64,000 nt of DNA, from the NCBI GenBank assembly GCA_964616425.1, contig CAZTQY010000003.1, positions 47,402 to 111,401 on the forward strand, read 5' to 3'. The position numbers were made by a program, and so were the translations under genes. How positions within the stretch are numbered: the first letter of the stretch is position 1; every line of letters begins with the position of its first letter. The notes under the pieces are model-generated. The model saw nothing but the letters and a program-made list of their open reading frames with translations, did not search any database and was not told where the DNA came from. Origin of the DNA: an uncultured Candidatus Saccharibacteria bacterium (GTDB taxonomy: Bacteria; Patescibacteriota; Minisyncoccia; Phycocordibacterales; DATDWN01). Shown piece after piece: positions 6,072-58,679 of the stretch.

Positions 6072-7112
6072 ATGGCATTTTTCAGTAAAACAAAAAAAGT
6101 TCGTGTTGCAATAAACGGTTTCGGTAGAATTGGCAGACAATTTCTGAAAGAGAGTTGGGATAATGAAAGTCTAGAAGTGGTTGCAGTTAACGATCTAGGA
6201 AGTGTCGATAATATGGCGTACCTTTTGAAATACGATACGGTTTATAAAACATGGAAGCATGATGTGAAAGTAGACGGTGGAAACCTTGTAATAGACGGTA
6301 GAACAGTAAAATTTGTTTCTGAAAAAGAGCCAACAAAACTTCCTTGGGGAGAGCTTGCAGTTGATGTTGTTGTTGAGTCTACAGGACTTTTCACTTCATA
6401 CGACAAAGCCTCTGTTCATTTAACTGCTGGTGCAAAGAAAGTAGTTATCTCAGCTCCTTCAAAAGGTGGAGACGGAAGTGTGAAAGGTGAAACTATACTC
6501 ATGGGTGTAAACGAGGAAAAGTTCGGTACATGTGATGTTACTTCAAATGCGTCATGTACAACAAACGCTGCTTCGCCACTTATTGCTATTTTGGATGAAA
6601 ACATTGGTATTGAAAAAGCAGTTCTGAACACTGTTCATGGATACACAGCGTCACAAGCACTAGTTGATGGTCCGTCTAAAAAAGATTTGAGAGAGGGAAG
6701 AGCAGCCGCACAGAACATCGTGCCTTCTTCTACAGGAGCAGCTATTGCGGTAACACAGGCATTCACGAAACTAGAAGGTTTGTTTGATGGTATTTCTATC
6801 AGAGTTCCTGTTCCAGCTGGTTCTATTGTGGATGTAACTTTTATTTCAAAGAAAAATACAACTGCAGAGGAAGTGAACAGTGTATTGCGAGCAGCTGCAG
6901 CAAGTGATAGATGGAAAAATATTTTCTCAGCTACAGATGAGGAACTAGTATCATCAGACATTCTCGGTAGTCATTATGGTTCTATCGCAGACCTCAAAAT
7001 GACTCGTGTTGTCGGAGGAAACTTGATAAAGGTTATGGCGTGGTATGACAATGAGGCGGGGTATACGAACATGCTGATTGACCACGTGATAAAAACTGGT
7101 AAAACAATATAA
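6072..7112 (+). CDS. gap: Glyceraldehyde-3-phosphate dehydrogenase
   Basis: NGFGRIGR Rossmann motif and the SCTTNA active-site motif. Confidence 0.95.
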   Translation: MAFFSKTKKVRVAINGFGRIGRQFLKESWDNESLEVVAVNDLGSVDNMAYLLKYDTVYKTWKHDVKVDGGNLVIDGRTVKFVSEKEPTKLPWGELAVDVVVESTGLFTSYDKASVHLTAGAKKVVISAPSKGGDGSVKGETILMGVNEEKFGTCDVTSNASCTTNAASPLIAILDENIGIEKAVLNTVHGYTASQALVDGPSKKDLREGRAAAQNIVPSSTGAAIAVTQAFTKLEGLFDGISIRVPVPAGSIVDVTFISKKNTTAEEVNSVLRAAAASDRWKNIFSATDEELVSSDILGSHYGSIADLKMTRVVGGNLIKVMAWYDNEAGYTNMLIDHVIKTGKTI

Positions 7113-7230
7113 ATTCCAAATTTGGCGAACTCCTCGTTCCCAAATTAAAAATATTCGTCACCTTAGCACTAACTAAGGCTCCTCATCTTTTTAATTTCTC
7201 ACGTCGGATTTCATCCAAATTGTGAAATTT
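7113..7230. mobile_element. MITE-like repeat, family alpha copy 1, with terminal inverted repeats and an internal conserved hairpin
   Basis: Starts immediately after the gap stop. TIRs ttccaaatttggcgaa / ttcatccaaattgtgaa. About 90% identical to 39165-39325. Confidence 0.45.
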
Positions 7231-7290
7231 TGATTTTGGAGTTGTTGAATACTTTATATCTATATACCACAGATTTAGTATAATTAAATT

Positions 7291-7737
7291 ATGCGAATCT
7301 ATATAAGTTCTGACCATGCGGGGTTTGAGATGAAAAGAAGTCTCATTGCTTTTCTTGTTGAACAGCAGTTTGAGGTGTACGACTGTGGACCAAAGCAATA
7401 TGATCATGAAGATGACTATCCAGATTATATTTCTATTGTAGCTTCTAGTGTTTCAAAAGATAGAGACTCAAAGGGAATAGTTTTAGGTTGGTCAGGTCAG
7501 GGTGAAGCTATGGTGGCAAACAGATTTCCAAACGTAAGGTGCGCACTTTTTTATGGTGGCAATAAACATATTTTGACTTTAGCTAGAGAGCATAATGATT
7601 CGAATATTCTATCTTTAGCTTCTCACTTTATAACTACCCAAGAGAGTCATCAGGCTGTATTGTTGTGGCTTAAAACACCCTTTTCTGCAGAACCTAGACA
7701 TATTAGAAGAATTAAGAAGATCGAACAATATGACTAA
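7291..7737 (+). CDS. rpiB: Ribose-5-phosphate isomerase B
   Basis: MRIYISSDHAGFE..CG motif set of the RpiB/LacAB family. TATAAT at 7278. Confidence 0.9.
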   Translation: MRIYISSDHAGFEMKRSLIAFLVEQQFEVYDCGPKQYDHEDDYPDYISIVASSVSKDRDSKGIVLGWSGQGEAMVANRFPNVRCALFYGGNKHILTLAREHNDSNILSLASHFITTQESHQAVLLWLKTPFSAEPRHIRRIKKIEQYD

Positions 7738-8402: not shown

Positions 8403-9305
8403 ATGGCAATGCCAAATTTAACAGACGACAAAATCCGTTTGCTTTCAGAAAAGGCAAAAGCAATACGCATTTCAATCATAGAGATGCTTGTTTCTGCCGG
8501 TTCTGGTCACTCTGCTGGCCCTTTGGGTATGGCTGATATTTTCACTGCACTTTATTTTTTTATTCTACGTCATAATCCAACTGATCCGTTTTGGGAAGGC
8601 CGAGATAGGCTTATACTTTCAAACGGTCACATAAACCCTGTCTTGTATGCAACGATGGCTCACTCAGGATACTTTCCAGTTTCTGAGCTTCTGACACTGA
8701 GAAAGTTTGGCTCAAGGCTTCAGGGTCATCCACATAGAGAGTTTCTTCCAATGTTGGAAAATAGTTCAGGACCACTAGGTTCTGGTTTGTCACAAGCGGT
8801 AGGTATGGCGATAGCAGATAGAATGGATAAAGGAAGAACTTCTGATAGATTTTTCTACTGTTTGCTTGGTGATGGAGAACTAGACGAGGGACAGAACTGG
8901 GAAGCAATAATGTTGGCCAATAAAGAAAGACTTGGAAATTTAATTGTTTTTGTTGATAGAAATAATATTCAGATAGATGGATATACAGAGGATGTTATGC
9001 CTCTTGATTCTGTATTACACAAGTTTGAGAGTTTTGGTTGGCATGCAGAAGAGATAGACGGACATAACTTTGCAGAAATCATCGCTGCTGTTGGGAGAGC
9101 GCAGGCAGTCTTTGATGGACCGAGCGTGATAGTCGCTAGAACTATTCCAGGAAAGGGAGTTTCGTTTATGGAGCGTGACTACAAATGGCATGGTAACCCT
9201 CCAGGAACAGAGTTGCCTGGCGAGCCGCCAAAGGATGAACAAGCAAAAATTGCGTTGCATGACCTCCGTACTCTAGGCGGCCAGATAACATCCGAACATG
9301 AATAA
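8403..9305 (+). CDS. Transketolase, N-terminal (TPP-binding) subunit of a split enzyme
   Basis: GSGHSAGPLGMADI and GDGELDEGQNWEA motifs. Confidence 0.9.
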   Translation: MAMPNLTDDKIRLLSEKAKAIRISIIEMLVSAGSGHSAGPLGMADIFTALYFFILRHNPTDPFWEGRDRLILSNGHINPVLYATMAHSGYFPVSELLTLRKFGSRLQGHPHREFLPMLENSSGPLGSGLSQAVGMAIADRMDKGRTSDRFFYCLLGDGELDEGQNWEAIMLANKERLGNLIVFVDRNNIQIDGYTEDVMPLDSVLHKFESFGWHAEEIDGHNFAEIIAAVGRAQAVFDGPSVIVARTIPGKGVSFMERDYKWHGNPPGTELPGEPPKDEQAKIALHDLRTLGGQITSEHE

Positions 9306-9337
9306 AACTTCCAAAACTGACAAATTTCTTTGTTCTC

Positions 9338-9393
9338 GATTTTACTTTCTCCACGCGCAGTACTAGATGTACAGCTTGGTCGAAAGTAAAATC
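9338..9393 (+). repeat. Hairpin family beta copy 1: 12-bp perfect stem around a conserved 29-nt core
   Basis: gattttactttc [tccacgcgcagtactagatgtacagcttggtc] gaaagtaaaatc. The same core, with a different complementary stem, is at 58277-58330. Confidence 0.45.
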
Positions 9394-9464
9394 TGCGAAC
9401 TTCGAACTTCACACAGTTTTGAAAGTTTTAAGTTTTCAATCCGAATTGTGTTAAAATAATTTAA

Positions 9465-10463
9465 ATGTTAAATTCAAAACAAAAATTAAATCCAAAGATT
9501 TTTGATAAGAAGGTAGAACAACTACCTATTCGTCAGGGATTTGGGGAAGGGTTAGTAAAAGCGGGAGAGAAAAACTCTCAAGTTGTTGGACTTTGTTCAG
9601 ATCTTACAGAGTCAACAAAGATGAATCTGTTCCGTGATAAATTTCCTGAGAGGTTTGTTGAGATAGGTATTGCAGAACAAAACCTTGCATCAGTTGCGAG
9701 TGGAATGTCTGCAATGGGAAAAATCCCATTCATTTCGAGTTATGCAATGTTCTCTCCAGGAAGAAACTGGGAGCAGATACGAACGACTATTTGTTATAAC
9801 GACAGAGCTGTCGTCATCGCAGGAAGTCACGCCGGGATATCTGTTGGTCCAGATGGTGGAACTCATCAGGCAATAGAGGACATAGCTATTACACGTGTTA
9901 TACCAAACATGGTTGTTATTTCTCCGTGTGACGCGATAGAGGCCAGGAAAGCAACTATGGCAGCAGCAGAGCTTGGCAAACCAGTTTATTTGCGACTTGC
10001 TCGAGAAAAAACTCCAGTTATAACTACAGAGGAAACTCCTTTTGAAATCGGAAAAGCACAGATCTACTTTGGAGACGAAAAAGCAAAGGCTGATGCTGGA
10101 ATAATAGCGACAGGAGCTCTTGTTCACAAAGCACTGAAAGTTGCAGAGGATTTGAGTAAAGAGGGAATTACGGTAAAAGTTTTAAATATTTCAACAGTTA
10201 AGCCAATAGACAGTGAAGCAATAATTAATATTGCAAAAACTTGCGGAGCGATAGTTACAGTGGAGGAACATCAGATAATTGGTGGACTTGGTTCCGCAGT
10301 TTCTGAAGTTTTGGTACAAAACTTTCCTGTGCCACAGGAATTTATCGGTGTAAAAAATCTATTTGGCCAAAGTGGTAAACCCGATGAGCTAATTGAACAC
10401 TACGAGATGGGAGAGTCACATATTCTTTCAGCAGTAAAAAAAGTAATTGGAAGGAAAAATTAG
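9465..10463 (+). CDS. Transketolase, C-terminal (pyrimidine-binding) subunit
   Basis: Pyrimidine-binding and C-terminal domain similarity; follows the N-terminal subunit gene. Confidence 0.9.
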   Translation: MLNSKQKLNPKIFDKKVEQLPIRQGFGEGLVKAGEKNSQVVGLCSDLTESTKMNLFRDKFPERFVEIGIAEQNLASVASGMSAMGKIPFISSYAMFSPGRNWEQIRTTICYNDRAVVIAGSHAGISVGPDGGTHQAIEDIAITRVIPNMVVISPCDAIEARKATMAAAELGKPVYLRLAREKTPVITTEETPFEIGKAQIYFGDEKAKADAGIIATGALVHKALKVAEDLSKEGITVKVLNISTVKPIDSEAIINIAKTCGAIVTVEEHQIIGGLGSAVSEVLVQNFPVPQEFIGVKNLFGQSGKPDELIEHYEMGESHILSAVKKVIGRKN

Positions 10464-16873: not shown

Positions 16874-17155
16874 ATGAAAAAAGAAATACATCCACAAAAC
16901 TATAGACCAGTACTATTTATCGACAACTCAAATGGCGCTGAATTTATAATATCTTCAACTGTTCCATCTACTGAAACAGCAAAAGCAAAGGCAGACAAGA
17001 AAGAGTACCCAGTTTACCGAGTTGAAATCTCAAGTGCATCACATCCTTTCTATACTGGAAACGAGAAGTCACTAGACACAGCAGGACGAGCAGAGAAGTT
17101 TAAGCAACGAGTTGCAAAAGCTACTGCTACTAAAGCTAAGAAATCAACAAAATAA
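16874..17155 (+). CDS. rpmE: Ribosomal protein L31
   Basis: MKKEIHPQNY..HPFYTG motifs. Confidence 0.9.
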   Translation: MKKEIHPQNYRPVLFIDNSNGAEFIISSTVPSTETAKAKADKKEYPVYRVEISSASHPFYTGNEKSLDTAGRAEKFKQRVAKATATKAKKSTK

Positions 17156-17157
17156 CC

Positions 17158-17194
17158 CCGCCTGCGTTGTTGCAGGTCGGGTTATTTTGTTCAA
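17158..17194 (+). terminator. rpmE terminator; first part of a repeated module also found at 56243-56325
   Basis: cccgcctgcgttgttgcaggtcggg followed by ttatttt. Confidence 0.5.
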
Positions 17195-17292
17195 TGTACT
17201 CCGTGTACACCTCACTCAAAAACCATCCTGCGCCTAGCACTCAGGGCTATTTTCTTGATTTCTTAAGTGACTAATTTGTTATAATTACTTTA

Positions 17293-24226: not shown

Positions 24227-24276
24227 ATGTCGAAACTATAGCGAAAAATAGGCGTTTTGTAAAATTTTTGTAATCA

Positions 24277-24415
24277 AAACAAAACTTTTTTCAGACCGCT
24301 CGCTTTTCCAGCGAAAAGCTTGCTTTGTCCTCGGTCGCAACTTGTCAATGAGCCGAGCAAAGCTCGGACTTTGACAGGACCATGCTTGCGACCTGTGGGG
24401 TCATCAAAAAGTTTT
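24277..24415. ncRNA. Candidate structured RNA element gamma, copy A (strand undetermined)
   Basis: Shares cttttccagcgaaaag, tgtcctc, ttgtcaatgagc and ttgaca.ag.ccatgct with 44630-44750. Two helices covary: ggtcgcaa/ttgcgacc and cgagc/gctcg. Confidence 0.4.
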
Positions 24416-24435
24416 GTTTTGAGTAAAATTTAGTA

Positions 24436-36810: not shown

Positions 36811-36848
36811 GCGACCGACGACCGGACCCAATGCGGGCCGGTCGTTTA
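36811..36848 (+). terminator. Terminator of cassette G
   Basis: cgaccggaccc aat gcgggccggtcg followed by ttt. Confidence 0.55.
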
Positions 36849-36902
36849 ACTTATATTTTAAATATTTTCAAAAAATTTGTTATACTAAATAAAACTTTAT
36901 TT

Positions 36903-39164
36903 ATGTACCTCAAGTCTATAGAACTAACAGGTTTCAAATCTTTTGCAAAAAAAGCAGAGCTTAACTTTACGTCTCGTGTTTCTGCTATCGTAGGTCCTAA
37001 CGGTTCTGGAAAGTCCAATATCGCAGAAGCTTTCCGTTTTGTGCTAGGTGAGCAGTCTATTAAAAGTTTGCGCGGTAAAAAAGGTGAAGATCTTATTTTC
37101 AATGGAGCAGGTGATTTGCCTCGAGGAAATAGAGCAAGTGTGAAAGTAACTTTTGATAATAGTTCAAAGTTTCTACCGTTAGACTATGAGTTGGTAACTA
37201 TTGAACGCATTGTGCACAGAGACTCAGTGAACGAATACATGATAAACGGATCCCAAGTTAGACTGCGAGACGTTGTTGAGCTTTTGTCGTCTGCTCATAT
37301 CGGAGCATCTGGTCATCATATTATTTCTCAGGGTGAGGCTGACAGAATACTAAATGCTAGTATAAAAGAACGAAAGGCAATGATAGAAGATGCTCTTGGT
37401 TTGAAACTATATCAATATAAAAAACAAGAAAGTGAAAGAAAGTTAGAAAAGACTCGAGAAAATATTGAGAAAGTAGAGTCGTTACGTCGAGAAATAATGC
37501 CTCATCTAAAGTTTTTGAAAAAGCAGGTGGAAAAGGTAGAAAAGGCGATACAGATGAAAGACGAGTTGCAGAAAGAGGCTTTAGAGTACTGTAAACGTGA
37601 AGATGAGTACATAAAGCGAACAGAAGAGAAGATCAAAACTTCAAAAGAACCTCTGATTCACAAAGAAAAAGAGTTGGATAAAGAGCTTGCCGAGGCAAAG
37701 TCTATTTTGGAAAATGCAAAAGATAAAGATGGTTTGTCAGAGGAACTTATTCAGTTGGAAAATGATTTGCACAAAGCTAGGGATGAAAAAGATGGTCTCT
37801 TTAGGGACTTTGGACGTATAGATGGAGAGTTGAACTCTTTGGTTAGGATGGTTAAAAAGCAACAGGAAGTGGCTAACTCGATGGAGCATAAAACAGTAAC
37901 TCTGGTTTCTGTCGAGGATCTTTCCAAAAAAATAGAAGATAGAGTTCAAAAAGCAAAAGAGACAAAAGACGTAGATGCGCTTTTATCTGCCTTGGACGAA
38001 GTTTATAATCTCGTTTCAGATTTTATTGACTACAACAAAGACAAAGTTGAAATGACTTTGATAGAAGATGTGCAGAGAGATATCGATGCTCTGCAAAAGT
38101 CTAAAAAGGAGTTAGAAACAAAACTAGAAGAAATAAAAAAACGTGAAGGGGATTTGTCTGAGTCATATAACAAACTAAAAACAGAAATAGAAAAGGAAAA
38201 GGACTCTAACAGAGATGCAGAAAAAGCAGTTTTTAGAATCATGGCAGAGTCACAAGAAGTACGCTCACAGATTCATAGTATACATTCTGATGAAGAAACT
38301 TTGAGAGTTGTAAAAGAAGATTTTAAAAGAGAACTTACAGAGCTTGGTATGCTTTTGGGTACACATGTATTACAGTTCCAAAATCTTGAATACGACTTTA
38401 GTGAGCCACGTCATGAACAAGACGAGCGAAGACGAAGAATAGAGAAAATTAAAATCCGTTTGGAAGATTCAGGTGTTGCGGGTGGGGCTGAGACACTAAA
38501 GGAATACACAGATGCAACTGAACGAGATGAGTTCCTGGCAAAAGAACTTTTGGATTTAGAAAACTCGGCAAACTCACTCACTGAACTTATAAAGGATTTG
38601 GATGTTCGACTTTCGACAGAGTTCAAAACTGGTTTGGATAAAATAAACCATCAGTTCAAAGAATATTTTGCTCTTATGTTTGGTGGAGGTGAAGCACATC
38701 TTTCTGTTTCCTTGCCACCAAAAAAGAAGAAGGACACTGACTTAATGATGGATGATGGAGAAGATACTTTCAGCGACGCTCCATCTATGACAGCTGAGGC
38801 CGAAGGCTCCGATGGTATCGACATCGAGGTTAATTTACCAAAGAAAAAAGTTAAGGGTCTCATGATGCTTTCCGGAGGAGAAAGGGCTCTGACATCTATT
38901 GCGCTTTTGTTTGCTATATCACAGGTTAACCCACCACCATTTATTATTCTTGATGAAACTGATGCCGCACTCGACGAAGCAAACTCAAAGAAATATGCAG
39001 ATATGATAGAAAATCTTTCAAAGTATTCTCAGCTTATTGTGATAACTCACAATAGAGAGACAATGTCTCGCGCAGGATTATTGTACGGAGTAACTATGGG
39101 AATGGGTGGGGGATCGAAACTGCTATCCGTCGCCTTCGAGGAAGCACTAGCCGTCGCAAAGTAA
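36903..39164 (+). CDS. smc: SMC-like chromosome segregation ATPase (short form)
   Basis: N-terminal Walker A GPNGSGKSN, long coiled coil, C-terminal LSGGE signature and Walker B ILDETDAALD. Confidence 0.8.
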   Translation: MYLKSIELTGFKSFAKKAELNFTSRVSAIVGPNGSGKSNIAEAFRFVLGEQSIKSLRGKKGEDLIFNGAGDLPRGNRASVKVTFDNSSKFLPLDYELVTIERIVHRDSVNEYMINGSQVRLRDVVELLSSAHIGASGHHIISQGEADRILNASIKERKAMIEDALGLKLYQYKKQESERKLEKTRENIEKVESLRREIMPHLKFLKKQVEKVEKAIQMKDELQKEALEYCKREDEYIKRTEEKIKTSKEPLIHKEKELDKELAEAKSILENAKDKDGLSEELIQLENDLHKARDEKDGLFRDFGRIDGELNSLVRMVKKQQEVANSMEHKTVTLVSVEDLSKKIEDRVQKAKETKDVDALLSALDEVYNLVSDFIDYNKDKVEMTLIEDVQRDIDALQKSKKELETKLEEIKKREGDLSESYNKLKTEIEKEKDSNRDAEKAVFRIMAESQEVRSQIHSIHSDEETLRVVKEDFKRELTELGMLLGTHVLQFQNLEYDFSEPRHEQDERRRRIEKIKIRLEDSGVAGGAETLKEYTDATERDEFLAKELLDLENSANSLTELIKDLDVRLSTEFKTGLDKINHQFKEYFALMFGGGEAHLSVSLPPKKKKDTDLMMDDGEDTFSDAPSMTAEAEGSDGIDIEVNLPKKKVKGLMMLSGGERALTSIALLFAISQVNPPPFIILDETDAALDEANSKKYADMIENLSKYSQLIVITHNRETMSRAGLLYGVTMGMGGGSKLLSVAFEEALAVAK

Positions 39165-39325
39165 ACTTCCAAATTTGGCGAATACCACAAGAGTACTTCT
39201 TGTTTTATAAACAAAACAAAGTCGCTCCTCGTTCCCAAATTAAAAATATTCGTCACCTTACAGGTGTAAGGCTCCTCATCTTTTTAATTTCTCACGTCGG
39301 ATTTCATTCAAATTATGAAAGTTTG
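39165..39325. mobile_element. MITE-like repeat, family alpha copy 2 (with about a 40-bp internal insertion relative to copy 1)
   Basis: Starts directly after the smc stop. Same TIRs and the same tcgtcacctta..taaggctcctcatctttttaatttctcacgtcggatttcat core as 7113-7230. Confidence 0.45.
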
Positions 39326-39363: not shown

Positions 39364-39395
39364 ATGTAAGTATAGTTCGTTAACAATTACTTGTG

Positions 39396-39446
39396 AAGTG
39401 GTTAGCCAAAAGCCCCTGAAAATCAAGGGTTTTTGGCTAACCACTT
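39396..39446 (+). promoter_or_regulatory. Leader hairpin with 20-bp perfect stem between promoter and cassette H gene; candidate attenuator or regulatory structure
   Basis: aagtggttagccaaaagccc ctgaaaatcaa gggtttttggctaaccactt. Confidence 0.4.
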
Positions 39447-39510
39447 CTGGAAAGCCCCTTAACTCGCGGGTAGCGAGAAACTTCTCGGCAATTAGCCGAA
39501 AAGGAGAAGT

Positions 39511-40044
39511 ATGATCAAGAACAGCGAACTCAACTTGGGTCAGATCGAGGCGATCGTCAACAAGCTTGGTGGGATGAGTGGTGTTGACCGTTTCCTCGCT
39601 GGTGAGTTGGTTGTCGTCCCGGCATATTCTGCCGTTGTGGACTACAGCCAGTCACTTGTTGAGATGGTCTCTGCAGGGAAGTACGACTGGGTGAGCGAGG
39701 GTATCACTGAGAAGAACTTCCCTAAAACCATGTCGGGCAAAGTTCGGGTCAATTTCGAACTTGTCCACTTCAATCGGAACATCACGTCGGACATCGCAGT
39801 GATGGGGCTCGGTGGGATGGGATTACGCCCTGCGACCATCTGGGAACTTCTAGCATTCGGGGCTAAGTACCCCGAACTTCAGAGAGAGTTTCCTGTCGTC
39901 GCCCTAGGATCGGTCGCCAAGATTGAGGATTCTCGTCATGTTGTCGGTTTCTTCATGATTGTTTCCAAGCGGAGTGTTGATCACCTCTGCACGTGGGGTC
40001 ATGATTGGACACGTAACGTGCGTTTCCTCGCCGTTCGCAAGTAA
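39511..40044 (+). CDS. High-GC cassette H gene 1: hypothetical 177-aa protein
   Basis: SD aaggag, GC about 55%, followed by a terminator. Confidence 0.5.
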   Translation: MIKNSELNLGQIEAIVNKLGGMSGVDRFLAGELVVVPAYSAVVDYSQSLVEMVSAGKYDWVSEGITEKNFPKTMSGKVRVNFELVHFNRNITSDIAVMGLGGMGLRPATIWELLAFGAKYPELQREFPVVALGSVAKIEDSRHVVGFFMIVSKRSVDHLCTWGHDWTRNVRFLAVRK

Positions 40045-40106: not shown

Positions 40107-40135
40107 GCCCAGCATACGTGCTGGGCTTATTCGTA
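40107..40135 (+). terminator. Terminator after cassette H gene 1
   Basis: gcccagcatacgtgctgggc followed by ttattcg. Confidence 0.45.
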
Positions 40136-40280
40136 TATAAATTAAAGTAGTGTTATTCCAAGACTCTCGACAATCGAGGTCTATAGTGATTGCTTCGAAC
40201 TTCACTCAGTTTATGAAAGTTTGAGAGGAATAATTTGACTTTTGTAAAAATTGTGTTAGATTCTTTGGTGGAGAAATTAT

Positions 40281-43484: not shown

Positions 43485-43889
43485 ATGGCTATGACTGTCG
43501 TCATCTCGAGTAGGGTCCTAAAGTGGACATTGGTGTTGGTTTTCGCCATGTTCGTTGGCAGTTTGGTACTGCCGACACCTCAGGAACTGGTCAGAGATTT
43601 CCAGATCCAACTGCTCATCGAAGAGCAGAACAAGATCTGTGGAATGCTCGAGGCTGAACTTGAGGCAAGCATCCACCAGCTGTACGGAGTTCCTCAGGAT
43701 CTGATTTTGCCCAAGTCAGTCCAGGAGAACTTTCGTCTGAGGTACGCATCATCCAAGGCTTTTACGGAAGAAGGTGCGCGAAGCCTCGACGATGCAATTC
43801 TGGCCTGTACGGTCAGAACCAAATGGCAAAGTCTGGTTGATAGGATAAGTGAGGGAGCTTTCCCTCATAGATACCAGTCAGCTGACTGA
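43485..43889 (+). CDS. High-GC cassette I: hypothetical protein with N-terminal TM/signal segment
   Basis: Extended -10 tgttataat upstream, SD ggaggg, and a strong terminator. Confidence 0.5.
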   Translation: MAMTVVISSRVLKWTLVLVFAMFVGSLVLPTPQELVRDFQIQLLIEEQNKICGMLEAELEASIHQLYGVPQDLILPKSVQENFRLRYASSKAFTEEGARSLDDAILACTVRTKWQSLVDRISEGAFPHRYQSAD

Positions 43890-43899
43890 CACGGGGGAT

Positions 43900-43932
43900 C
43901 AGGGGAGGCCACAGTGGCCTCCCTTTCTCATA
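43900..43932 (+). terminator. Terminator of cassette I
   Basis: ggggaggccacagtggcctccc followed by tttctcat. Confidence 0.6.
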
Positions 43933-43965
43933 TACAAAAATAGAAAATTGTGGTATAAATTCGGA

Positions 43966-44619
43966 ATGAATTTTCATATCATAAGTCTTTTTCCTAACGC
44001 ATTCGACTCATATCTAAATGAGTCTATTATTTCTCGTGCAATAGAGGATAAGAAAATTAAAGTCAGTTTTTATAACCCTCGTGATTATTCTGATGATAAA
44101 TGGAAAAGGGTTGATCAGAAACCATATGCTGGTGGCCCAGGTATGGTTATTCAGGCTCTGCCTGTCATCAAAGCAATACAGAAAGCTTTGATGAAGTTAA
44201 AAGTTAAAAGTAAAAAGTCGAAAGTAAAGATTATTTTTTTCTCTCCTGGTGGGAAGGAGTTTAATACAGACTATGCAAAAAAATCTGCAAAAAAATACAC
44301 TGATATTATTTTTGTTTGCGGGAGATATGAAGGTATTGATGCTCGAGTAAAAAAAGTTTTTAAAATGGAAGATGTATCTATTGGAAATTATGTTTTAACT
44401 GGTGGCGAGTTGCCAGCTATGGTGTTGATCGATTCTATTTCTCGACAGGTTGAAGGAGTGCTCGGTAACTTTAACTCTCTAGAGGAGTCGCGTGTTTCTA
44501 GTCACGACTCATACACAAGGCCAGAAGTTTTTGAATATAAAAAGAAAAAATACAGAGTGCCAAAGGTTTTGCTTTCAGGAAATCATAAAGAGATTGAGGA
44601 GTGGAAAAGAACTAGATAG
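43966..44619 (+). CDS. trmD: tRNA (guanine37-N1)-methyltransferase
   Basis: SPOUT knot motifs: ISLFPN, GGPGMV, YEGIDARV, NYVLTGGELPAMVLIDS. Confidence 0.9.
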   Translation: MNFHIISLFPNAFDSYLNESIISRAIEDKKIKVSFYNPRDYSDDKWKRVDQKPYAGGPGMVIQALPVIKAIQKALMKLKVKSKKSKVKIIFFSPGGKEFNTDYAKKSAKKYTDIIFVCGRYEGIDARVKKVFKMEDVSIGNYVLTGGELPAMVLIDSISRQVEGVLGNFNSLEESRVSSHDSYTRPEVFEYKKKKYRVPKVLLSGNHKEIEEWKRTR

Positions 44620-44629
44620 AATTTTTTAG

Positions 44630-44750
44630 AGACAAAAACTTTTCCAGCGAAAAGTTTTTTCTGTCCTCAGCCTTGATTTGTCAATGAGCTCTGATTACAG
44701 AGTCGTTGACAAAGCCATGCTCAAGGCTTGCGGATGCTCTAAAAAACGTC
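44630..44750. ncRNA. Candidate structured RNA element gamma, copy B
   Basis: Shares the conserved blocks of copy A. The long-range helix covaries (agccttga/tcaaggct), as does the internal hairpin (ctctg/cagag). Confidence 0.4.
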
Positions 44751-44848
44751 TATCTAGTTCTTTGTGTTTTGGGTAACAAAAAACACCACTCCGACCCAAG
44801 GGGGAAAATTTCTCCCACCTTGTGTCGACGCGGCGTCGTGTGTACTGG

Positions 44849-57388: not shown

Positions 57389-57418
57389 TTGACCAGTGAA
57401 CCCTAGTTCACTTATAAT
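57389..57418 (+). promoter_or_regulatory. lexA operon promoter with embedded LexA box (GAAC-N4-GTTC)
   Basis: TTGACC a GTGAACcctaGTTCAC t TATAAT. Confidence 0.55.
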
Positions 57419-57469: not shown

Positions 57470-57661
57470 ATGAGTAAACAAAATTTTGAAAAATCATTGA
57501 AAAAAGAGTTGAGGGTCATAAATGAAATTATAGATATGAAAATTATCCGTGGTCTGTCATATGCTAACGAAGCAAAGAGACATAAGTTTATTCTTTCTAG
57601 TCTTGCAAATATAAAGAGAGCAAATTCTAACTGGATGGTGAGGACATTTAATTTTGCCTAA
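57470..57661 (+). CDS. Small hypothetical protein (63 aa) overlapping the lexA start by 8 nt
   Basis: Co-oriented with lexA and lies downstream of the LexA-box promoter. Confidence 0.4.
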   Translation: MSKQNFEKSLKKELRVINEIIDMKIIRGLSYANEAKRHKFILSSLANIKRANSNWMVRTFNFA

Positions 57662-58241
57662 AATGAGTAACGAAAAATATTCAACATATAGAGACCGTAT
57701 ACTTTCTTTTTATCGAAAGAACCGACGTATGCCTGGGTATAAAGAGATAATGACTCTGGTTGGTTTCAAATCAAAAAATGCAGTCTATAAACTTATCAAC
57801 AAACTAGTTGATGATGGTATTGTAGACAAAGACTCTGAAGGGCATTTAACTCCTATGAAAATTTTTGGCGAAGTTCCACTGCTTGGACTTGTTGAAGCCG
57901 GAATACCAACAACTGTGGACCAAGGTACTGACACACTGAGTTTGGAGGAATATCTGATAGGTGGTAAAAAAAGCTCCGTTTACTTGCTCGAGGTAAAAGG
58001 AGACTCCATGATTGACGAAGGAATACACGAAGGTGACTTGGTTTTGGTTGAGCGTCGTGGGGATCCAAAAGATGGAGATATAGTTATCGCTGAAGTAGAT
58101 GGTGGTTGGACAATGAAATATTTTAAAAAGAAAGGAAGTATCGTGTACCTCAAAGCCGCTAACAAAAACTATTCACCAATATATCCTCAGTATGATTTGA
58201 AAGTGGCAGCTATAGTAAAGGGTGTTATTCGTAAGTACTAA
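57654..58241 (+). CDS. lexA: LexA repressor (S24 peptidase)
   Basis: N-terminal winged HTH, GDSM catalytic Ser, and a downstream Lys. Confidence 0.9.
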   Translation: MPKMSNEKYSTYRDRILSFYRKNRRMPGYKEIMTLVGFKSKNAVYKLINKLVDDGIVDKDSEGHLTPMKIFGEVPLLGLVEAGIPTTVDQGTDTLSLEEYLIGGKKSSVYLLEVKGDSMIDEGIHEGDLVLVERRGDPKDGDIVIAEVDGGWTMKYFKKKGSIVYLKAANKNYSPIYPQYDLKVAAIVKGVIRKY

Positions 58242-58276
58242 ATTTCTGGTCTTTTTGCCCGATTTCTACGTTGCTA

Positions 58277-58330
58277 GTTTTGTTTGTTTCCGCAGAGTAC
58301 TAAATGTACACTTTGGTCACAAACAAAACG
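58277..58330 (+). repeat. Hairpin family beta copy 2
   Basis: gttttgtttgtttc [cgcagagtactaaatgtacactttggtca] caaacaaaac. Core about 80% identical to 9350-9381, stems unrelated but complementary. Confidence 0.4.
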
Positions 58331-58391
58331 TCGCGCCTTGAACTCAAACAAAAATCCTCAGAAATTACAATCATGAATATTTTTAATTTAT

Positions 58392-58679
58392 ATGAAAGTT
58401 CTTAAGTTCAAGTCTCAGGTTTGGAGATGGCCAGGGGATATGGGCTGGCATTTTGTTACTTTACCAAAAAAGCTTTCCGAAGAGATAAAAGAGGTTGGCA
58501 AAATCTATGGCGCTGGATTTATAAAGGTAAAAGCTACTGTTGGAGATAGTGTCTGGGTTACAGCACTTTTCCCCCATAAGATGTCAAAAGCATATTTACT
58601 CTCAATAAAGCAAAATATACGAAAAAAGGAAGGAATCTGGGAAGGTGATATAATACAAGCATCATTAACCCTAGAATAA
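58392..58679 (+). CDS. DUF1905-like small protein
   Basis: WRWPGDMGWHFVTLP pattern. Confidence 0.5.
   Translation: MKVLKFKSQVWRWPGDMGWHFVTLPKKLSEEIKEVGKIYGAGFIKVKATVGDSVWVTALFPHKMSKAYLLSIKQNIRKKEGIWEGDIIQASLTLE

Follow-up and report, generated by a model that had tools for sequence, protein, structure and literature searches.

Long hairpins at stop codons form an apparently undescribed repeat family of Patescibacteria genomes

Introduction

The question raised by this locus is what kind of element combines a conserved centre with flanking stems that pair perfectly and share no sequence. Two such hairpins occur in the window (the whole stretch of 64,000 nt that was analysed), one between the transketolase genes tkt-N and tkt-C and the other between a LexA-like gene and a DUF1905 gene. 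The initial annotation placed them in the 5' leaders of plus-strand operons and suggested a mobile promoter, an attenuator or a protein-binding stem-loop, with a core that might be exposed as a single-stranded loop.

Extent and predicted fold of the window copies

Both hairpins were found as first described, with a perfect stem of 12 bp in copy 1 (9338–9349 with 9382–9393) and of 10–11 bp in copy 2 (58277–58287 with 58319–58329); the cores of the two copies are alike at 24 of 32 aligned positions, and the stem sequences are unrelated. A 27-nt degenerate core pattern matched the window only at 9355–9381 and 58292–58318, both on the + strand, and had no match in 100 shuffles of the window. Real as they are, these hairpins constitute only the apex of a larger structure. 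The pairing of both copies extends outward to 9303–9430 and 58241–58366, and each full element (beta element) is predicted to be one imperfect hairpin of about 126–128 nt with nine helical segments, P1–P9. The arms 9303–9319 and 9414–9430 of copy 1 are 94% complementary; the predicted minimum free energies (MFE) are −43.1 kcal/mol for copy 1 (z = −6.1) and −37.1 kcal/mol for copy 2 (z = −6.05). The core is not a single-stranded loop in the predicted fold of either copy, where it forms three short helices (CCR/UGG, a 2-bp helix and GUAC/GUAC) with an A.A mismatch between P8 and P9, and GUAC/GUAC closes a 5-nt loop; P8 differs between the copies in a compensated way (GC/GC in copy 1, AG/CU in copy 2). 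The "shared module" reported downstream of the hairpins does follow each copy; it is really the 3' arm of the larger hairpin. The TAA codon of tkt-N is predicted to contribute the first pairs of the outermost helix, P1. The features are as follows:

9303..9430, + strand: full beta element, copy 1, a 128-nt hairpin with inverted arms, flanked by tkt-N (8403–9305) and tkt-C (9465–10463); 106.8 bits with the covariance model R1 (described below)
9303..9305, + strand: TAA stop codon of tkt-N, encoding the transketolase N-terminal subunit (ORF 8403–9305; Pfam Transketolase_N)
9338..9393, + strand: inner variable stem P6 enclosing the apex of copy 1, the stretch annotated initially
9350..9381, + strand: conserved apex of copy 1, with P7 CCA/UGG, P8 GC/GC, the A.A mismatch, P9 GUAC/GUAC and the loop UAGAU
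9394..9430, + strand: 3' arm of the outer scaffold of copy 1, from P5 to P1 (the "shared module")
58241..58366, + strand: full beta element, copy 2, a 126-nt hairpin, between a LexA-like S24 peptidase gene (57654–58241) and a DUF1905 gene (58392–58679), named after their Pfam matches; 147 bits with R1
58239..58241, + strand: TAA stop codon of the LexA-like gene, its last A being the first paired base of P1
58288..58318, + strand: conserved apex of copy 2, with P7 CCG/UGG including a G.U pair, P8 AG/CU and, in the inner part, the A.A mismatch, P9 GUAC/GUAC and the loop UAAAU
17137..17268, + strand: degenerate third beta-type copy after the gene of ribosomal protein L31 (16874–17155); 37.4 bits with R1, E = 6e-6

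The copy after the L31 gene has inverted arms and the apex GUAC-UCCGU-GUAC, and the final 18 nt of the coding sequence are shared with its 5' arm. This arm, including the stop codon, can pair either with 17172–17191, forming a 20-bp local hairpin, or with 17237–17265, forming a long P1; the two alternative folds of 17137–17268 are mutually exclusive. Across the MFE folds, which were computed without a control, some helices reach into the coding sequence; this result was set aside.

Distribution and covariation

The genome scan, conducted with an 18-base core pattern on one genome per species, yielded 42 loci, two to four per genome. Thirty-nine of the 42 are in Patescibacteria, under the labels Parcubacteria, Zambryskibacteria, Paceibacterota, Minisyncoccia and "Saccharibacteria"; the last label is probably imprecise, since the loci in question carry near-identical orthologues of the window genes. 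Every complete genome copy folds into the same rod of ~125–130 nt. In a MAFFT alignment of 37 copies, on which the structure was imposed by us, 84% of the cells are paired vs 34–48% with slid partners, compensatory (double) changes occur in 32 of 44 pairs, and none of 500 shuffles reached any of these measures. When the loop was not fixed, a metagenome scan returned 108 loci; among them the apex loop varies, with UA preferred at its 5' end, and P8 takes one of five Watson–Crick forms in 93 of 102 copies (GC/GC 43, AG/CU 18, AA/UU 13, GG/CC 10, GA/UC 9).

A covariance model of the beta family (CM R1) was used to search for divergent copies. It matched 112 metagenomic places with GC contents of 0.29 to 0.61; in the alignment of 106 metagenomic copies, which was fitted to R1 and so leans towards the structure, 87% of the cells are paired vs 34–43% with slid partners, and double changes occur in 41 of 44 pairs. 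The divergent copies show compensation even in apex pairs that are otherwise invariant (L040:6778, L025:7628, L022:1530), e.g., C-G to U-A in L040:6778 and GUAU/AUAC in L025:7628. Altogether, about 140 distinct beta copies were found in public genomes and metagenomes, nearly all from Patescibacteria. Much of the initial description is borne out at this scale: the search with variable stems, proposed as a check, did uncover further copies with compensated pairing, mostly in Patescibacteria; the stems are conserved in structure and not in sequence throughout the set; pairing is kept in the further copies (84–87% of cells vs 34–48%); and the element is indeed a dispersed, modular repeat.

Rfam 15 at gathering thresholds matched only a tRNA in the whole window, and a search with both copies on both strands and E-values up to 10 gave only chance miRNA and snoRNA matches far below the gathering score. 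The core pattern had no match in viral contigs, and phage carriage was rejected on this ground. No description of the repeat family was found in the searchable literature, and the beta hairpins apparently represent an undescribed family of many Parcubacteria-type (candidate phyla radiation) genomes. What is new, as far as we found, is how sharply the elements are registered on stop codons and how strictly they are oriented, together with their modular conserved apex and their deep retention in streamlined genomes.

Related elements with the same scaffold

The outer scaffold (P1–P5) also occurs with another apex. R1 also gave low-scoring matches that aligned in the scaffold and carried the different apex CGUCACCUUA...UAAGGCUCCUC, which is CU-rich, as in the two alpha elements of the window; the alpha-type relatives L028:1219, L023:4359 and L017:354 matched R1 from end to end with a gap across the beta apex. 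The window contains the following members of this group:

7113..7232, + strand: alpha element 1, directly after the gap stop codon (7110–7112), with the beta-type outer scaffold and a different apex
39165..39325, + strand: alpha element 2, directly after the stop codon of ORF 36831–39164
40176..40225, + strand: orphan 3' scaffold arm, for which no 5' partner was found

Recurrence of the "shared module" at both alpha elements, reported initially, is thus genuine and reflects the common outer scaffold; the further occurrence at 40176–40225 was present as well, as a solitary 3' arm that is probably a remnant. The orphan arm lies downstream of a terminator-like hairpin (40107–40128). The two window alpha copies match perfectly over 36 nt and at 95% over 59 nt, a near-identity that suggests a recent duplication; the second of them has an extra insert of ~40 nt. 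Several "MITE-like" repeats of the window can be explained as one modular superfamily.

Two other repeats were observed. A third family of ~160 nt (24268–24428 and 44606–44763) has inverted arms of 22–30 nt and a common 51-nt core (80% identical); one arm overlaps the stop codon of ORF 43849–44619, and neither copy had an Rfam match. A near-perfect hairpin with 25-nt arms (92% complementary) at 39395–39447 lies upstream of ORF 39511–40044.

Genomic context

In 36 of the 38 genome copies, an ORF on the same strand ends 48–57 nt before the core, i.e., at the base of P1. Among the 134 distinct full-length copies, 116 (87%) have a co-oriented stop codon at the hairpin base, and in 86 (64%) it falls within one 6-nt window; of random positions, 19% have such a stop codon in the whole 55-nt window. 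The stop codons at the base include TAA (45), TAG (32) and TGA (3). The C-termini of the upstream ORFs are native, being identical in orthologues with and without the element, which rules out that the stop codon comes from the element or that the gene is truncated by it. The upstream genes are mostly housekeeping genes: those of S14, S7, S6, S18, L2, L31, EF-P, HU, an RRM protein, MraZ, DnaB, LexA and tktN for the genome copies, and those of S7 (13 of 82), HU (7), RRM proteins (4), SecY, SSB, EF-Tu/EF-G, Hsp20 and SecG for the metagenome set. In the window the gene order is gap-[alpha]-rpiB-rpe-tktN-[beta]-tktC and lexA-[beta]-DUF1905.

The downstream side is variable. Counting ORFs of at least 100 aa, the first one downstream lies on the + strand in 81 cases and is convergent in 33 (about 29%). 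The next start codon is 9 to 363 nt away (10th–90th percentile), in contrast to the upstream stop codon, whose distance is fixed. Within ~80 nt downstream, 35 of 134 copies (26%) have a canonical intrinsic terminator, compared with 1.4% of random windows; this places the element in the 3' UTR. Neither window copy contains or ends in a G+C-rich stem with a U tract; this absence, together with the separate terminators behind many copies, rules out that the element is itself the terminator. The context thus shows the element between a stop codon and a terminator, or between cistrons, and the beta element is tied to the upstream gene, not to the downstream one.

Sequences resembling −10 boxes were observed 6–7 nt before the ATG of rpiB (TATAAT; 7279–7291) and of tkt-C (TGTTAAAAT; 9449–9465), and neither gene has a Shine–Dalgarno sequence before its ATG; their mRNAs may be leaderless. 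The fusA genes of related loci also have no obvious Shine–Dalgarno sequence.

Proposed role of the hairpins

The explanation that we hold, with only modest confidence, to be the probable one is that the beta elements are co-transcribed RNA hairpins of ~130 nt, located in 3' UTRs or intercistronic regions, structurally selected and acting on the upstream mRNA. From the genomic context, we infer that the + strand is the transcribed one. In the alignments, compensatory changes are shown to preserve the predicted pairing, also between copies at the same orthologous site, where 79 compensated vs 38 uncompensated double changes were counted.

The hairpin would act in cis on the upstream message. Since the helix starts at the stop codon and the ribosome unwinds ~15 nt downstream, P1 and P2, which would lie within the stretch that a terminating ribosome must unwind, would be opened in every termination event; the hairpin may thereby interfere with translation termination or gauge it, as is reported of E. 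coli REPs near stop codons. After refolding, the rod would leave no naked untranslated RNA for Rho or endonucleases and would block 3'-to-5' exonucleases, and the conserved apex is a possible recognition knob for a protein or another RNA. Several points speak against an RNA-hairpin role, namely the better fold of the − strand, the absence of the element at some orthologous sites, the signs of mobility and the apparent redundancy of a second exonuclease barrier where a canonical terminator follows.

Retention at orthologous sites and signs of spread

At orthologous sites the element is 75–95% identical in most pairs, with two HU pairs lower; the third codon positions of the adjacent coding sequences are saturated, at 34–82% identity (mostly 42–66%), and the downstream spacer is about 45–69% identical. 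At the S7–fusA junction, copies are kept over 30–61% GC with unrelated P1 sequences (e.g., GCGGGCAGCCC/GGGCUGCCCGC vs UCUUUCAAGU/ACUUGAAA) and the same apex, which indicates long vertical retention. The element is absent at some orthologous sites, namely those of the RRM gene in the window, which has a plain terminator at 769–794 instead, of tkt-N in L024 and of the EF-P gene in L026. In L024 (4222–4490), the tkt-N/tkt-C spacer is 270 nt of unrelated sequence without a beta element. Such presence and absence shows that the element is dispensable at a given gene. Copies of one subfamily, type A, are ~90% identical, judged by eye, after tkt-N, the S18 and L2 genes and a dehydrogenase gene in different species; such similarity at unrelated loci is a sign of spread and points to mobility, and the L031 copy is a chimera of two subfamilies.

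A purely selfish, MITE-like palindromic DNA repeat, whose hairpin would matter only for spreading or for doing no harm, with arm-to-arm correction accounting for the covariation and no function of the RNA, could explain the presence/absence polymorphism, the type-A copies and the chimera, as well as the several copies per genome at unrelated loci, the swapping of alpha and beta apices on one scaffold, the 95–100% identity of the two window alpha copies and the rarity of G.U in variable pairs, where it is about as rare as A.C. We consider this explanation unlikely. No direct repeat that could represent a target-site duplication was found in the flanks of 38 copies; the outermost helix, P1, is the most variable part of the element, not the most conserved, and it covaries, and conserved terminal inverted repeats are absent. 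No autonomous partner was seen; a search with fuzzy patterns for scaffold halves split around a transposase returned too much noise to be read either way. A DNA target cannot recognise in-frame TAA, TAG and TGA alike, and the orientation relative to the upstream gene is strict; the retention at the S7–fusA junction took place in streamlined genomes, and the element is conserved far above synonymous sites. Furthermore, conservation of the fixed asymmetries of the arms (U.G, G.U and Y.Y) shows that they have not simply been homogenised. The family probably dispersed in the manner of a MITE, many copies being kept thereafter.

RNA or DNA, and the strand concerned

The + strand keeps a G.U pair in P7 and, in 80 of 105 copies, a U.G pair in P5, which the search pattern did not impose. 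It has about 8.6-fold fewer Shine–Dalgarno-like 4-mers than the − strand (44 vs 377), and its internal loops are almost all pyrimidine–pyrimidine (755 Y.Y vs 132 R.R cells), including two conserved tandem UC/CU mismatches and a recurrent C.A. CUCC/CCUC motifs were observed at ~1.7 per element over all beta copies. The conserved arm asymmetries and the translation-level register argue for selection on the + strand RNA. The − strand folds ~10 kcal/mol better in 36 of 37 copies, and in variable pairs G.U (~93) is not commoner than A.C (~125; our own sum, two conserved wobble columns excluded), unlike in typical RNA families; given this ratio, the stability of the − strand and the Y.Y loops, a DNA-level share in the covariation, through arm-to-arm correction of the palindrome, is possible.

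It is quite improbable that the element is a DNA-level site, be it a cruciform or protein-binding locus behind highly transcribed genes or a GTAC-N5-GTAC operator. Its size (~130 bp), dyad symmetry, conserved centre and position downstream of highly expressed genes would suit such a site, and a parallel exists in BIME-2, a gyrase site behind highly transcribed genes. The window has more GTAC-N5-GTAC matches than expected (5 vs 0.39), and wobble pairs do not favour one strand over the other. Recognition of a duplex by a protein does not explain arm complementarity that is free of sequence, however, and the stop-codon register is a translation-level feature; the apex loop is variable, P9 is compensated in divergent copies, the host LexA operator is the canonical GAAC-N4-GTTC, and GTAC is not avoided in the window (observed/expected 0.87). 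A LexA operator was considered, given the position of copy 2 behind lexA and the binding of direct repeats by some LexA proteins, and was rejected because the lexA promoter has GAAC-N4-GTTC, not GTAC-N5-GTAC; a restriction–modification link through GTAC was likewise rejected, since GTAC is not avoided. The LexA-type operator GTGAAC-CCTA-GTTCAC was observed at 57390–57418, inside a TTGACC-17-TATAAT promoter upstream of a small ORF and the S24-peptidase (LexA-like) gene.

The − strand could itself be the functional molecule, as a small RNA, antisense or independent, whose internal loops would be GA-rich: its fold is the more stable one, the conserved tandem UC/CU mismatches become tandem GA/AG on it, and the recurrent C.A positions become U.G. 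We regard this as very improbable; no room for a promoter is left where a terminator lies 4–40 nt beyond the element, the conserved U.G (80 of 105) and G.U of the + strand would become mismatches, and CM scores at the same loci are ~100 bits lower on the − strand, partly by construction, R1 being a + strand model.

The 5' leader, mobile promoter or attenuator of a downstream + strand gene, as envisaged initially, is hardly credible. Both window copies do precede + strand genes, with −10-like boxes between the element and the start codon; across the family the constant neighbour is instead the co-oriented stop codon upstream (116 of 134 copies), the expectation that all copies precede plus-strand genes fails with 33 of 122 nearest downstream genes on the opposite strand, and the idea is further contradicted by the terminators (35 of 134 copies vs 1.4% of random windows) and by the variable start-codon distance, against the fixed distance to the upstream stop. 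No promoter or terminator consensus was found inside either window copy, and the fixed position and orientation upstream of a regulated gene that characterise 5' leaders, riboswitches and attenuators were not found. A single-stranded-DNA recombination site, attC-like or an HUH/IS200-type hairpin, is scarcely plausible either: the element recalls one in being an imperfect palindrome about as long as attC, in its fixed orientation immediately behind ORFs, in its conserved unpaired bases and in the lack of a target-site duplication, but the polarity R''(RYYYAAC)...R'(GTTRRRY) of attC is reversed in the conserved triplets GTT...AAC, and the copies persist at orthologous sites among core housekeeping genes in conserved operons, not cassettes.

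Discussion

The closest known parallels to the beta family, read as transcribed hairpins under structural selection, are dispersed bacterial palindromes. In E. coli, REPs located less than 16 nt from a stop codon make terminating ribosomes stall and reduce translation, according to the account of Liang, Rudd & Deutscher 2015 given in PMC12306157. Beta elements resemble REP/BIME in being dispersed extragenic palindromes after stop codons or between cistrons, their transcription being suggested by the context, and the stabilisation of upstream mRNA by the transcribed REP/BIME hairpins matches the proposed beta role. They are unlike REPs in other respects: a REP has ~35 nt, a conserved consensus with 5' GTAG and a link to RAYT (TnpA_REP) transposases, and a beta element has ~130 nt, nine helices and a conserved apex; no REP consensus or 5' GTAG was seen in the beta alignments. 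Only a minority of REPs lie within 15 nt of a stop codon, unlike the beta copies, of which 64% have it in a 6-nt window at the first pair.

ERIC (IRU) sequences are imperfect palindromes of ~127 bp in transcribed intergenic regions, conserved across enterobacterial species; they are present or absent at orthologous sites, occur in both orientations and are reported to affect the stability of flanking mRNA. The beta element is likewise an imperfect palindrome of ~127 bp in intergenic regions, transcribed to judge by its context. Compared by description, ERIC differ in not being registered on stop codons, and the hosts of beta elements are Patescibacteria. Correia elements (CREE/NEMIS) of Neisseria and other MITEs are similar in being short non-autonomous palindromic repeats, co-transcribed with neighbouring genes as long RNA hairpins, and subfamilies and mosaic copies are seen in the beta family in the same way; MITEs carry terminal inverted repeats that are conserved, and their target sites are duplicated (TA for Correia), unlike the beta elements, with their highly variable termini and no duplication. 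The beta element would work like REP, ERIC and Correia and differs from them in size, consensus, terminal repeats and target duplications. An analogy only, with no homology implied, can be drawn with the 3' stem-loop of animal histone mRNAs, a conserved hairpin shortly after the stop codon of highly expressed genes for nucleic-acid-binding proteins; that stem-loop, a eukaryotic structure of far smaller size (6-bp stem), has a dedicated binding protein that reads it, and a beta counterpart of this protein would be conjecture.

A non-coding element of ~130 nt after the genes of S7, S14, L2 and HU is unlikely to be ballast, because the genomes are small and streamlined and the element is kept across a wide GC divergence. 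A more ambitious proposal, rather unlikely and offered tentatively, is a lineage-specific translation-coupled device, with a rod on the stop codons of the most expressed genes that every terminating ribosome would have to open, a dedicated factor reading the apex and global control by ribosome sensing. If true, it would mean that mRNA fate, or termination and recycling, is controlled globally in bacteria with few known regulators; knowledge of post-transcriptional control in the candidate phyla radiation is very scant. The model R1 and the alignments provide a concrete tool for annotating their genomes, and the family offers a natural test of whether bacteria in general tune termination and mRNA decay with stop-proximal hairpins, in the way proposed for E. 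coli REPs.
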